In this document: piece by piece, positions 49,318 through 50,780 of the stretch
How positions within the stretch are numbered: the stretch's first letter is position 1
Layout of the letters: each line of letters begins with the position of its first letter
Virus record (IMG/VR): IMGVR_UViG_3300042323_000705
Coordinates: 1 to 64,000 of that record
Source: a virus
Length of the DNA stretch: 64,000 nt
Reading direction: 5' to 3' (one strand)
Position numbers and translations under genes: made by a program
The notes under the pieces: model-generated
What the model saw: the letters and a program-made list of their open reading frames with translations, nothing else
Database searches by the model: none
What the model was told of the DNA's origin: nothing

Positions 49318-49345
49318 GGGGGGCGCGAAGCCCCCCGTTTTATTT
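49318..49345 (+). terminator. terminator closing the large-terminase island
   Basis: GGGGGGC-GCGAA-GCCCCCC-GTTTTATTT, nearly identical to 45644. Confidence 0.75.
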
Positions 49346-49833: not shown

Positions 49834-49925
49834 TGGTAGAAGTGCCGAGTTTCGATCTCGGTCCAGAACAGTCATCTACTGCTAAAGGGATTATAAGGCC
49901 CTCCTGCGTCCCAACGCCCACTTCC
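49834..49925 (-). tRNA. non-canonical tRNA-like RNA, anticodon UAU (Ile-type), 92 nt
   Basis: Acceptor GGAAGTG/CACTTCT + A-CCA; D arm GCGT-TGGG-ACGC; loop CT-TAT-AA; long V arm; T arm CCGAG-ATCGAAA-CTCGG. Confidence 0.75.
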
Positions 49926-49930
49926 ATACT

Positions 49931-50107
49931 TTAACGATGATCCTTTGACTTTGGTTTAGCACGTTTATGCTTTTGAGTTTGGTATGTGCTAGTTGCACGA
50001 GTATGTTTGCGCCCTTTACGAAGATCACCACCTGCACAACAGCGACAGTGAGGGCGAACACCAAGACGAACGTCACAGTTAGCTTTTTCGTGATTTCCTG
50101 AATCCAT
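49931..50107 (-). CDS. small Cys-rich basic protein (58 aa, MDSGNHEKANC...)
   Basis: Read by eye; SD AAGAGG, stop 5 nt before the tRNA-like RNA. Confidence 0.55.
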   Translation of the reverse strand: MDSGNHEKANCDVRLGVRPHCRCCAGGDLRKGRKHTRATSTYQTQKHKRAKPKSKDHR

Positions 50108-50120
50108 GTTAGCCTCTTAG

Positions 50121-50687
50121 CTATATCTCATTTAGTTTAGCAAATTCACCATGGTATTTTAAAGCTGCTTCGTTATAAGCTTTTGCAGCTTCTATTAGGT
50201 CTTCAAAATAACCAATATGTTTAGTTATCGTATTTATCATTACTCTAGCTTGCCATTTTTCTTTTTCTTTATTCCAATGAACACCTTTATACCCAGAAGT
50301 ATTATTTTTAGGTTTTTTAGAATTTCTAGAATTTTCTTTTTGATTAGCTAACCTTAAATTCTCTAGTTTATTGTTAGAAGGATTCCCATCTATATGATCA
50401 ATATAGTATCCTTCAGGTATAGGACCATTAAACATTTGCCAGATTATCCTATGAACTCTAAAAGGACTACCTGCAATTGTTACTTCGAAATAGACTTTAC
50501 TGCTCTTATTTCCAGCAAGATCTCCTACTTTTTTATTATTACACATAGGATGAACAATTTTCCAGTAAATTTCTCCATTTTTATACTCAAAAATTTCATT
50601 AAGAGGTTTATTAAGAAATTCATTTTTTAACTGTTCTGCTTTTTGTTTTTTAATTTCATTATTTTTATGTAAATGTTCCCATCCCAT
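50121..50687 (-). CDS. HNH homing endonuclease with AP2 domain
   Basis: HRIIW...IDHIDG...NN...NLR, N...NTSGYKGV.W...KW.A...IGYF....EAA.AY...A...HGEFA; very AT-rich. Confidence 0.92.
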   Translation of the reverse strand: MGWEHLHKNNEIKKQKAEQLKNEFLNKPLNEIFEYKNGEIYWKIVHPMCNNKKVGDLAGNKSSKVYFEVTIAGSPFRVHRIIWQMFNGPIPEGYYIDHIDGNPSNNKLENLRLANQKENSRNSKKPKNNTSGYKGVHWNKEKEKWQARVMINTITKHIGYFEDLIEAAKAYNEAALKYHGEFAKLNEI

Positions 50688-50704: not shown

Positions 50705-50780
50705 TGGCAGCTCCGGGGTGAATTGCACACCCGACCTAGAATTTAGAAGATTCTTGCTCTGTCTGCTGAGCTACGGAGCC
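50705..50780 (-). tRNA. tRNA-Arg(UCU), 76 nt
   Basis: GGCTCCG/CGGAGCT, D stem GCTC/GAGC, AGAAT-CTTCTAA-ATTCT, T arm GGGTG-TGCAATT-CACCC, G-CCA. Confidence 0.88.

Follow-up and report, generated by a model that had tools for sequence, protein, structure and literature searches.

A conserved phage tRNA gene with a UAU anticodon arm and a second, GAU-bearing hairpin

Described tRNAs closest to the two-arm gene

Reading of the isoleucine codon AUA is a weak point of bacterial translation, and it normally needs the essential enzyme TilS. Here we describe a tRNA gene with the anticodon UAU that lies in a window of 64,000 nucleotides from a virus (positions 1 to 64,000 of IMG/VR record IMGVR_UViG_3300042323_000705). 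The gene belongs to type 1 of a family that we term two-arm tRNA-Ile(UAU), in which the UAU anticodon arm is followed by a conserved hairpin with GAU in its loop.

The tRNA-Ile2 of Mycoplasma mobile also carries UAU in a C-U-UAU-A-A loop, and the two-arm tRNA likely shares its task of reading AUA as isoleucine without lysidine. However, tRNAs of this type are class I cloverleafs with a 5-nt variable loop, and they are served by an isoleucyl-tRNA synthetase (IleRS) adapted to UAU (Arg865) (PMC3575796), whereas the two-arm tRNA has a miniature D arm, an anticodon stem of 6-7 bp and the GAU hairpin, and would rely on whatever IleRS its host provides. In E. coli, IleRS charges a tRNA with the anticodon UAU poorly, and on the ribosomes of this species such a tRNA misreads AUG (PMC3575796). 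Thus, ordinary isoleucine function of the two-arm tRNA is not automatic. Its A73 matches a reported isoleucine determinant of E. coli tRNA-Ile (PMC9976931). The D-loop determinants reported for E. coli IleRS are G16, D20 and D21 (review PMC9976931), and these cannot all exist in the two-arm tRNA, because its D loop is 4 nt.

Allo-tRNAs (Mukai et al. 2017, PMC5389517) resemble the family in having a long extra arm, a lengthened anticodon stem and a D tetraloop. UAU is their commonest anticodon, and irregular tRNAs have been reported in phage tRNA clusters (PMC5389517). By contrast with the allo-tRNAs, which have a long D stem and an 8/4 or 9/3 split between acceptor and T stems (allo-tRNA(UAU) being compared here by its description), the two-arm family has a 4-bp D stem and a 7/5 split, both supported by covariation. 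Pairing of the 8/4 or 9/3 kind was considered for the two-arm RNAs and rejected: base 8 (G or A) faces G65 unpaired, and pair 7:66 and the first T-stem pair hold. The nematode nev-tRNA-Ile(UAU) (Hamashima et al. 2012, PMC3333845) likewise combines a long variable arm with the isoleucine anticodon UAU. However, nev-tRNAs are eukaryotic, keep to the standard class II body in other respects and accept leucine, whereas in the phages described here AUA keeps its isoleucine sense and the GAU of the extra-arm loop is fixed.

In tRNA-Sec, too, the D arm is compact with a 4-nt loop, the anticodon stem is lengthened and the extra arm is long. The acceptor/T split of bacterial tRNA-Sec is 8/5. An earlier reading of the window made from the sequence alone (the sequence-only reading) had likened the RNA to tRNA-Sec and to allo-tRNAs; the short D arm and long anticodon stem do agree, but membership in either family fails because the split is 7/5. 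As a candidate, tRNA-Sec (RF01852) was also rejected on score and anticodon: a type-1 relative matches it better than any other Rfam family, but the 27.9 bits lie below the gathering score of 47; the window copy does not match it; and the anticodon is UAU, not UCA.

Literature searches found no paper that describes a two-arm UAU/GAU tRNA architecture. When type-1 sequences were compared by blastn with 50,697 GenBank phage records, type 1 was absent, and only generic T-arm and acceptor matches were returned.

Conservation and fold of the window gene

Our searches recovered 210 copies of type 1, representing 120 distinct sequences in 209 contigs or loci that are mostly viral. Among close homologs of the window gene (95.7% identity), conservation starts at G1 and stops at CCA, and the flanks have diverged. 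The features of the window copy are collected in the table below, with their conservation in the family. Every feature of the cloverleaf described in the sequence-only reading is present base for base, including the T loop AUCGAAA, which most relatives in the 81-sequence set replace by the canonical UUCGAAU.

Features of the window tRNA gene and of its neighbors (positions in the window; fractions refer to distinct family sequences or to base pairs)
Feature	Positions	Strand	Details
Whole tRNA gene, type 1 of the two-arm tRNA-Ile(UAU) family	49834..49925	-	92 nt, G1 to encoded CCA
Acceptor stem, 5' strand, with G1.U72	49919..49925	-	Partner 49838-49844; both-side changes in 7/7 pairs across the family
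Connector base G8, single	49918	-	Precedes the D arm
Miniature D arm, 4-bp stem GCGU/ACGC with loop UGGG	49906..49917	-	3/4 pairs compensatory
Anticodon arm, 6 pairs (two G.U) plus C.U apposition adjoining the loop	49884..49904	-	4 stem pairs compensatory
Anticodon loop CUUAUAA (CU-UAU-AA)	49891-49897	-	Y-U-UAU-A-N in 81/81
Anticodon UAU, reads AUA	49893..49895	-	UAU in 66/67 new variants from a search pattern that did not constrain the anticodon
Extra ("variable") arm, AGCAG(U)/(A)CUGUU with loop (U)AGAUG(A)	49867..49883	-	17 nt; same length in 80/81
GAU triplet in the extra-arm loop	49874..49876	-	19/19 and 76/77 distinct variants in two scans that left the loop free
Linker CUGGA, extra arm to T arm	49862..49866	-	5 nt; C and G of the linker invariant in 81/81
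T arm, 5-bp stem CCGAG/CUCGG with loop AUCGAAA	49845..49861	-	4/5 pairs compensatory
Acceptor stem, 3' strand, discriminator A73 and encoded CCA	49834..49844	-	A73 in 81/81, CCA in 77/81
HNH endonuclease ORF between tRNA-Arg and UAU tRNA	50121..50687	-	PHROG 99, E = 1e-65
Canonical tRNA-Arg(UCU), usual partner gene	50705..50780	-	ARAGORN; Rfam tRNA 58.9 bits

The minimum-free-energy fold of the window copy is the same cloverleaf, with a z-score of -1.0; a value this small makes the fold energy of the single sequence uninformative either way. Covariation, which the sequence-only reading had named as a test, was assessed in 81 distinct type-1 sequences and found in all five helices. Both-side changes occur in 21 of the 29 pairs, and 96.1% of cells are paired, compared with 39-53% after the partners have been shifted by 1-3 columns; no shuffle reached the observed values. 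RNAalifold independently yields the same structure. At 1:72, 54 of the 81 sequences have G.U. In addition, the second base of the D loop changes together with position 55 of the T loop, G going with U and A with G, and a G:C56 pair is kept. This covariation between the loops supports an L-shaped fold, as judged from aligned sequences and not from a three-dimensional structure.

A custom covariance model of the kind proposed in the sequence-only reading (R1) separates the family from other tRNAs across phage sequences: members score 74-107 bits, all other tRNAs score at most 34 bits, and each phage has one copy. The window copy scores 101 bits and was among the training sequences of the model. 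Homologs with sharp boundaries, together with covariation, indicate more than a chance fold. Comparative sequence analysis confirms the described structure and supports a real, strongly conserved tRNA gene for the rare isoleucine codon AUA.

Compared with canonical tRNAs, the window RNA has the expected 7-bp acceptor stem and 5-bp T stem, both with compensatory changes, a discriminator base and CCA, and its 7-nt anticodon loop has U33 and a purine at position 37. It differs in having one connector base rather than two (8 and 9), a D loop of 4 nt rather than 7-11 nt, and an anticodon stem of 6-7 layers rather than 5 bp. It carries UAU with A37, A38 and discriminator A73, the traits of lysidine-free tRNA-Ile(UAU). 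The long variable arm, a hairpin with its linker, is a class II trait, whereas the constant UAU anticodon and the nonstandard D arm are unlike the class II tRNAs for leucine, serine and tyrosine.

Standard tools often pass over these genes. ARAGORN does not call the window copy; among the type-1 variants it misses 48 of 120, and of the five type-2 genes tested it calls none. Rfam does not call the window copy either: neither the general tRNA model (RF00005; no match at E <= 10 in searches of 2 kb and of 104 nt) nor the tRNA-Sec model matches it. Because of these misses, phage tRNA counts and analyses of codon supply undercount two-arm genes.

Codon sense, gene context and the predicted role in AUA decoding

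Among 2,504 ortholog pairs from phages that carry the two-arm gene, AUA is matched by isoleucine, valine and leucine at 0.43, 0.19 and 0.20, respectively. This pattern resembles those of AUU and AUC, and it is unlike that of leucine codons, which are matched by leucine at 0.68-0.76 in the same test. By this measure, AUA has isoleucine sense in these phages. Two other comparisons gave no signal. AUA usage showed no trend between terminase-related phages with and without the gene, in samples that were too small, and acceptor-stem similarity to tRNAs of the same cluster gave no isoleucine signal, with Val, Pro and Tyr slightly higher.

The codon-sense result bears on a proposal of the sequence-only reading, which it renders very unlikely, that the RNA is a mischarged recoding tRNA. 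As such it would be a substrate of the synthetase for leucine (LeuRS), or of SerRS or TyrRS, and AUA would be read in part as another amino acid. The long extra arm, A73 and G2-C71 (the latter in 71 of 81 sequences) would suit such a role, and there are precedents in nev-tRNAs, which are charged with leucine (PMC3333845), and in allo-tRNAs, which insert serine at leucine codons (PMC5389517). However, the genes of the window phage contain 110 AUA codons, so misreading would damage the phage's own proteins. The features that E. coli LeuRS reads lie in the D-loop region, and the tiny D arm of the two-arm tRNA has no room for an ordinary D loop. Charging by SerRS is also disfavored, because tRNA-Ser carries G73 (review PMC9976931) and A73 is found here.

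Two-arm genes reside in phage tRNA clusters, among tRNAs for other A-ending codons. The commonest neighbor is tRNA-Arg(UCU), which lies within 1.5 kb in 59 of the 120 variants; Leu(UAA) and a CAU tRNA are nearby in 37 variants each. In two relatives (L005 and L006) tRNA-Arg(UCU) is 5 nt from the two-arm gene. The HNH endonuclease ORF lies between the two tRNA genes only in the window phage, being absent there from L003, L005 and L006. Small phages retain just tRNA-Arg(UCU) and the two-arm tRNA, as in the window phage for type 1 and E. coli phage ESCO41 for type 2. Large clusters carry a probable tRNA-Ile2(CAU) adjoining the two-arm gene, as well as a canonical tRNA-Ile(GAU), and the two-arm tRNA may be redundant in them.

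No conserved protein neighbor, such as a dedicated synthetase or modification enzyme, was detected: the commonest real neighbors are replication proteins such as gp59, gp32 and a DnaB-like helicase, and none of these accompanies more than 15 of the 81 variants. Using the downstream 89-aa protein as a query for related loci identified no relatives, and a scan for promoters and terminators found nothing adjoining the window gene. A single metatranscriptome contig of 374 nt covers the gene and both flanks; such data consist of contigs that may include DNA, they give neither ends nor strand, and gaps in their coverage carry no weight.

The sequence-only reading had also raised roles outside translation, as a decoy for anticodon nucleases or as an aminoacyl donor for non-ribosomal chemistry. 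More broadly, the RNA might be a tRNA-like decoy or competitor for a host tRNA-targeting defense or enzyme, or a processing or regulatory element. The distance of the architecture from canonical tRNAs, its evasion of tRNA detectors and the possible redundancy with tRNA-Ile2(CAU) are all compatible with this view. Moreover, most allo-tRNA(UAU) species, which occur near toxin-antitoxin genes in soil bacteria, were judged to be possibly or probably outside translation (Mukai et al., PMC5389517). However, a decoy for an anticodon nuclease would require no more than the anticodon stem-loop, yet selection has also preserved the acceptor/T branch of 12 bp, A73 with CCA, U33, A37 and the contact at the elbow. 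These options leave the full set of tRNA constraints unexplained, and no protein partner is conserved beside the gene. We therefore consider a non-translational role improbable.

Of the functions put forward in the sequence-only reading, decoding of AUA independently of TilS is the best supported, by the UAU loop with U33 and A37, A73 and CCA, the tertiary covariation, the cluster context and the isoleucine sense of AUA. On this sequence evidence, the two-arm RNA is likely a functional phage tRNA that accepts isoleucine and reads AUA without TilS. Its expression, processing, attached amino acid and use by the ribosome are what we infer. The tRNA would be released from a polycistronic transcript of the phage, with host RNase P and 3' processing as the probable means, and would most likely be charged with isoleucine. 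The UAU arm would then read the rare AUA codon on the ribosome, with no need for lysidine modification by host TilS because the anticodon is UAU. Together with tRNA-Arg(UCU), the two-arm tRNA would supply decoders for A-ending codons that the phage uses.

The GAU hairpin and the sister type

The sequence-only reading had described the extra arm as a 6-bp variable arm. A helix of this length is present (AGCAGU/ACUGUU, loop AGAUG), but the fixed length of the arm and its constant GAU were missed. Across the family, the three inner pairs of the arm are compensatory and the three basal pairs are invariant, and RNAalifold assigns it 5 bp and a 7-nt loop. The loop of the window type follows the pattern Y-A-GAU-K-R.

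A sister type (type 2) of 101-104 nt is found in cultured phages of E. coli, Pectobacterium, Vibrio and Klebsiella. It is annotated as tRNA-Ile in the GenBank records of Pectobacterium phage PhiM1 and Vibrio phage WD615, and it is unannotated in E. coli phage vB_EcoS_ESCO41. A blastn search with a coliphage type-2 gene gave no match in 5,426 E. coli genomes. Type 2 resembles type 1 in its UAU loop, G1.U72 in most copies, A73, GAU hairpin, basal AGC motif in the extra arm and adjoining tRNA-Arg(UCU). However, its D region and its linkers are longer, its anticodon stem has 5 bp and its extra-arm loop reads YAGAUAA, whereas type 1 has a D hairpin of 4 bp and 4 nt, a 7-layer anticodon stem and no linker before the extra arm. 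When the loop was left free, YAGAUAA was recovered in 28 of 28 distinct type-2 variants, and this sequence is the loop of tRNA-Ile(GAU) except at U33. Against a gathering score of 29, type 2 reaches 39.9 bits with the general Rfam tRNA model; the alignment fits the GAU arm to the position of the anticodon arm and treats the UAU hairpin as inserted sequence.

Taken literally, this alignment would make the GAU arm the anticodon arm proper, a reader of AUC and AUU, and the UAU hairpin an accessory element inserted in the D region. The 5-nt linker 3' of the GAU arm, which has the length of a canonical variable loop, agrees with such an arrangement. However, U33 is missing from the GAU loop, where the position is mostly A; position 37 is frequently a pyrimidine in the window type; and closure could shrink the loop to 5 nt. 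The full decoding signature sits instead in the UAU loop, large clusters already carry a canonical tRNA-Ile(GAU), and the pairing with tRNA-Arg(UCU) in phages with two tRNAs fits supply of rare codons. We judge decoding by the GAU arm to be the least probable of the readings considered here.

A refinement of the preferred reading, in which the UAU arm decodes AUA, is that the two hairpins divide the work. The UAU arm would serve the ribosome, and the GAU hairpin would act as a pseudo-anticodon that supplies IleRS with G34-A35-U36, so that an ordinary host IleRS could efficiently charge a UAU tRNA, whose anticodon it would otherwise reject. In the sister type, the GAU arm would also supply the A37-A38 determinants. 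Several observations favor this possibility. GAU is retained in 76 of 77 variants recovered with no constraint on the loop while the stem around it covaries, the arm has a fixed length and the dimensions of an anticodon arm, the sister loop matches that of tRNA-Ile(GAU) save U33, and the Rfam model places the sister arm where an anticodon arm belongs. The family also occurs in phages of E. coli, whose IleRS reportedly charges UAU poorly (PMC3575796).

However, the geometry by which IleRS would reach the GAU loop with CCA in its active site is hypothetical, and the window type is without the A37 determinant, because GAU is followed by G, U or C, and by A only once in 81 sequences. Canonical one-arm tRNA-Ile(UAU) genes are also present in phages (L022 and L058), and the scans with an unconstrained loop speak to constancy within the family, a general link between UAU and GAU being a separate matter. 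We therefore hold this division of labor, in which the five helices may switch between two arrangements, only as a tentative proposal.

We know of no other natural tRNA in which synthetase and ribosome read different anticodon-like loops. The retention of UAU together with a fixed GAU hairpin over more than 150 distinct sequences suggests an architectural answer by phages to the charging problem, in which the GAU arm may be the means by which the host charging enzyme accepts the two-arm tRNA. If the GAU arm does recruit IleRS, the finding would bear on the rules of tRNA identity and on the engineering of orthogonal tRNAs.

The UAU tRNA gene and its surroundings

The window comes from a virus record of 73,778 bp, rated complete, whose phage is found in many lake-water metagenomes. 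The phage encodes its own RNA polymerase, DNA polymerase, primase/helicase and ribonucleotide reductase, as well as a major head protein, portal and terminase. The sequence-only reading described a non-canonical cloverleaf with a UAU anticodon, and this description is accurate. Minimum-free-energy folding gives exactly this cloverleaf. However, its z-score relative to shuffled sequences is -1.0, and thus the element's own sequence cannot prove that the fold is real. ARAGORN calls a tRNA-Arg(UCU) as the sole tRNA in the window and leaves the element uncalled, and the element matches nothing in Rfam's tRNA clan at E ≤ 10, whether 2 kb or 104 nt was searched.

Coordinates of features in the window and in other phage or chromosomal loci (L handles)
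Feature	Position	Strand	Description
UAU tRNA, whole element	49925 to 49834	-	Read 5' to 3' from sequence
Acceptor stem	within 49834-49925	-	7 bp, G1·U72
Connector	within 49834-49925	-	Single G after acceptor 5' strand
D arm	within 49834-49925	-	4-bp stem, tetraloop UGGG, then A
Anticodon arm	within 49834-49925	-	Six pairs plus C·U apposition, loop CUUAUAA
Extra hairpin	within 49834-49925	-	6 pairs, loop AGAUG, directly 3' of anticodon stem
Linker	within 49834-49925	-	CUGGA, extra hairpin to T arm
T arm	within 49834-49925	-	5-bp stem, loop AUCGAAA
3' end	3' end of 49834-49925	-	Acceptor 3' strand, A73, CCA
58-codon ORF	49931-50107	-	Between tRNA-Arg(UCU) and UAU tRNA
HNH endonuclease gene	50121-50687	-	Between tRNA-Arg(UCU) and UAU tRNA
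tRNA-Arg(UCU)	50705-50780		ARAGORN call
Terminator hairpin	49318-49336		7 bp, all G:C, T runs on both strands
Type-1 copy, Roseovarius MAG	L162:1966-2057	+	
CAU tRNA	L019:5986-6061	-	
CAU tRNA	L014:1649-1724	+	
One-arm tRNA-Ile(UAU)	L022:7539-7613	-	75 nt
One-arm tRNA-Ile(UAU)	L058:13780-13854	-	75 nt
Long-armed tRNA	L014:9398-9484	+	87 nt, Thr anticodon UGU
"tRNA-His"	L036:5359-5450	+	92 nt
tRNA-Leu(UAA)	L019:6066-6141	-	76 nt, no long arm
Permuted tmRNA gene	L012:2190-2575	-	

The gene is flanked by two small minus-strand ORFs. Because a promoter and terminator scan found neither adjoining it, release from a longer transcript would be needed. A 374-nt contig from an RNA library (metatranscriptome) covers the gene plus both flanks, which is weak evidence of expression. 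In the close relatives L005 and L006, tRNA-Arg(UCU) and the UAU tRNA are 5 nt apart; the HNH gene and 58-codon ORF therefore look like a mobile endonuclease insertion into the window's tRNA cluster.

A strong, likely bidirectional terminator hairpin separates the converging terminase unit from the tRNA-containing unit. In one contig from an estuary metatranscriptome, 49559 is joined directly to 49828, and the 89-codon ORF that follows the tRNA is missing. This junction probably reflects a variant phage genome without the ORF, rather than RNA processing.

Two related types with UAU and GAU loops

Phages L003, L005 and L006, which have a related terminase, carry the element at 95.7% identity, with a canonical tRNA (Arg(UCU) or Leu(UAA)) 5-9 nt upstream. 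The conserved block starts at G1 and stops at CCA, and the flanks are diverged. All substitutions are compatible with the cloverleaf: C-G is replaced by U-A in both the D and T stems, and G·U by A-U in the anticodon stem.

Pattern scans, three of IMG/VR and one covering 185,579 species genomes, produced at least 210 copies of this family, termed type 1, in at least 209 loci, and at least 120 are distinct. In an alignment of 81 distinct sequences, standard pairs occupy 96.1% of cells, versus 39-53% when partners are slid by 1-3 columns. Both sides change at 21 of 29 pairs, with all five helices represented, and no shuffle reached the observed pairing and covariation values. RNAalifold, run independently, gives the same structure. 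The cloverleaf is therefore not a chance fold. The second base of the D loop also covaries with T-loop position 55, G occurring with U (UUCGAAU and AUCGAAA types) and A with G (AGCGUAA types), and the adjacent G:C56 pair is kept throughout; the covarying pair is predicted to be the elbow contact of an L-shaped tRNA. All 81 sequences have A73 and 77 have CCA, and the 1:72 pair is G·U in 54/81.

The earlier reading also proposed a covariance model as a check. Our model, built from the alignment, sets the family (74-107 bits) apart from every other cluster tRNA (≤34 bits), with exactly one copy per phage. Among the matches listed, ARAGORN reports a 92-94 nt "tRNA-Ile (tat)" for 72 of 120 variants; those it misses, the window's included, have a non-UUC T loop. 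Only five copies were recovered from cellular genome bins, all in MAGs. One of these, in a 3.9-Mb Roseovarius MAG chromosome, lies beside a phage-integrase fragment and truncated helicase and also adjoins sugar-utilisation genes; it probably marks the edge of an integrated element.

All 81 aligned sequences have the anticodon loop Y-U-UAU-A-N. A second pattern, which specified the extra and T arms and left the anticodon free, produced 67 new variants among the matches listed; 66 are family members, and all 66 have UAU on differing anticodon stems. The extra arm is 17 nt in 80/81 sequences (the other is one basal base short), with three invariant basal pairs (A-U, G·U, C-G) and covarying inner pairs. 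RNAalifold draws it as a 5-bp stem and 7-nt loop, the size of an anticodon arm, and the loop reads Y-A-GAU-K-R. GAU occupied this loop in 19/19 distinct sequences from the first scan and in 76/77 from a scan leaving 11 bases of the arm free (among the matches listed in each), although these counts, like those for UAU, measure constancy inside the family and not whether UAU anticodons go with GAU loops in general.

A sister type, type 2, was traced from one odd match (L024). Its members are 101-104 nt, versus 90-93 nt for type 1, and carry the same CUUAUAA loop on a 5-bp anticodon stem, whereas the type-1 stem has 6-7 layers. The D region is longer than the 4-bp stem and 4-nt loop of type 1. 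G1·U72 is found in 24/28 sequences and A73 in 28/28. All five extra-arm pairs covary, and the loop is YAGAUAA in 28/28 distinct sequences recovered by a scan in which it was left free; this is the tRNA-Ile(GAU) anticodon loop, save for U33 to A. The general tRNA model of Rfam accepts type 2 (39.9 bits); its alignment puts the GAU arm in the anticodon-arm position and counts the UAU hairpin as 32 nt inserted into the D loop. The best Rfam match of a type-1 relative is tRNA-Sec, at a sub-threshold 27.9 bits, and there the UAU arm is aligned as the anticodon arm. ARAGORN called none of five type-2 genes. Three type-2 members (L264, L266, L267) have an added insertion of ~10 nt between the two arms and extra bases 3' of the GAU arm, and keep the loop UAGAUAA.

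Type 1 was not found in GenBank phages; type 2 has near-full-length matches in 22 records. E. coli phage vB_EcoS_ESCO41 carries the gene without annotation, immediately behind an annotated tRNA-Arg(tct). In Pectobacterium phage PhiM1 it is annotated as a 98-nt tRNA-Ile, and in Vibrio phage WD615 as tRNA-Ile, adjoining a canonical tRNA-Ile(GAU). Klebsiella, Xanthomonas and other phages also carry it. A search of 5,426 complete E. coli genomes found nothing that matches the coliphage gene.

Allo-tRNAs, defined by an 8/4 or 9/3 acceptor/T split (PMC5389517), are ruled out by the 7/5 split of the element's family. Score, anticodon and acceptor/T split rule out tRNA-Sec, and anticodon and D arm rule out class II Leu, Ser and Tyr tRNAs. 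The M. mobile-type tRNA-Ile(UAU) shares the anticodon and likely function but has a different body. Nematode nev-tRNA-Ile(UAU) shares the long arm and UAU but is charged with Leu (PMC3333845). Our literature search found no description of a tRNA with UAU and GAU arms.

Phage tRNA clusters

Type-1 members sit in phage tRNA clusters of up to ~30 genes, with the recurring order Arg(UCU), Leu(UAA), CAU tRNA, UAU tRNA, Leu(CAA). Arg(UCU) is ≤1.5 kb from 59 of 120 variants among the matches listed, and small phages retain Arg(UCU) and the UAU tRNA alone. No protein family consistently accompanies the gene.

Among the covariance model's non-family matches, the neighbouring CAU tRNA ranks first. It is similar to a tRNA-Ile from an E. 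coli plasmid, annotated by PGAP and likewise with a CAU anticodon. The copies in clusters L019 and L014 have the D arm, anticodon arm and C4/C5 in common with the plasmid tRNA. The CAU tRNA is therefore probably tRNA-Ile2. Large clusters probably carry lysidine-dependent and lysidine-independent AUA decoders close together (~200 nt in L019). Two loci (L022, L058) hold canonical one-arm tRNA-Ile(UAU) genes with a near-identical anticodon stem-loop; thus, phages carry both one-arm and two-arm AUA decoders.

Clusters of UAU-tRNA phages also include an irregular long-armed tRNA with a Thr anticodon, an irregular "tRNA-His" and a tRNA-Leu(UAA) without a long arm. A permuted tmRNA gene, with the tag ANDNAPFAMAVAA or ANDNNASRLALAA, occurs in small UAU-tRNA phages (L012, L013, L018, L020, L030, L047, L054, L062, L063, L066) and also in L052 and L067; in ARAGORN's call it overlaps the start of tRNA-Arg(UCU).

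AUA codons and a possible role of the second arm

The window phage has 110 AUA codons, 11% of its Ile codons. In phages with the UAU tRNA gene, AUA is replaced by I, V and L at 0.43, 0.19 and 0.20, as measured over 2,504 ortholog pairs. The values for AUU and AUC are 0.46-0.48 (AUA counted as Ile), 0.23-0.26 and 0.15, and those for Leu codons are 0.06-0.09, 0.03-0.04 and 0.68-0.76. Orthologs of the window's own genes agree. Because the AUA profile is like that of AUU and AUC, these comparisons indicate that AUA means isoleucine in such phages.

A UAU-anticodon tRNA is poorly charged by E. coli IleRS and misreads AUG on E. coli ribosomes (PMC3575796), yet type 2 is present in coliphages. The GAU hairpin might display the anticodon determinants of IleRS, which could explain charging. 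We consider this idea rather doubtful, because the A after GAU is missing in the window's type 1, and one-arm UAU tRNAs exist in phages too.

By our count, the 4-bp D stem, tetraloop and 7-layer anticodon stem give ~14 stacked layers, versus ~15 in a standard tRNA; the compact core would keep the anticodon-elbow distance near that of a normal tRNA. The 12-bp acceptor/T branch, A73 and CCA, the elbow contact, U33 and A37, and the constant anticodon point to a charged RNA that would be used in decoding. Given the sense of AUA codons and the neighbouring decoders of A-ending codons, isoleucine and AUA would be the natural assignment for the UAU tRNA.
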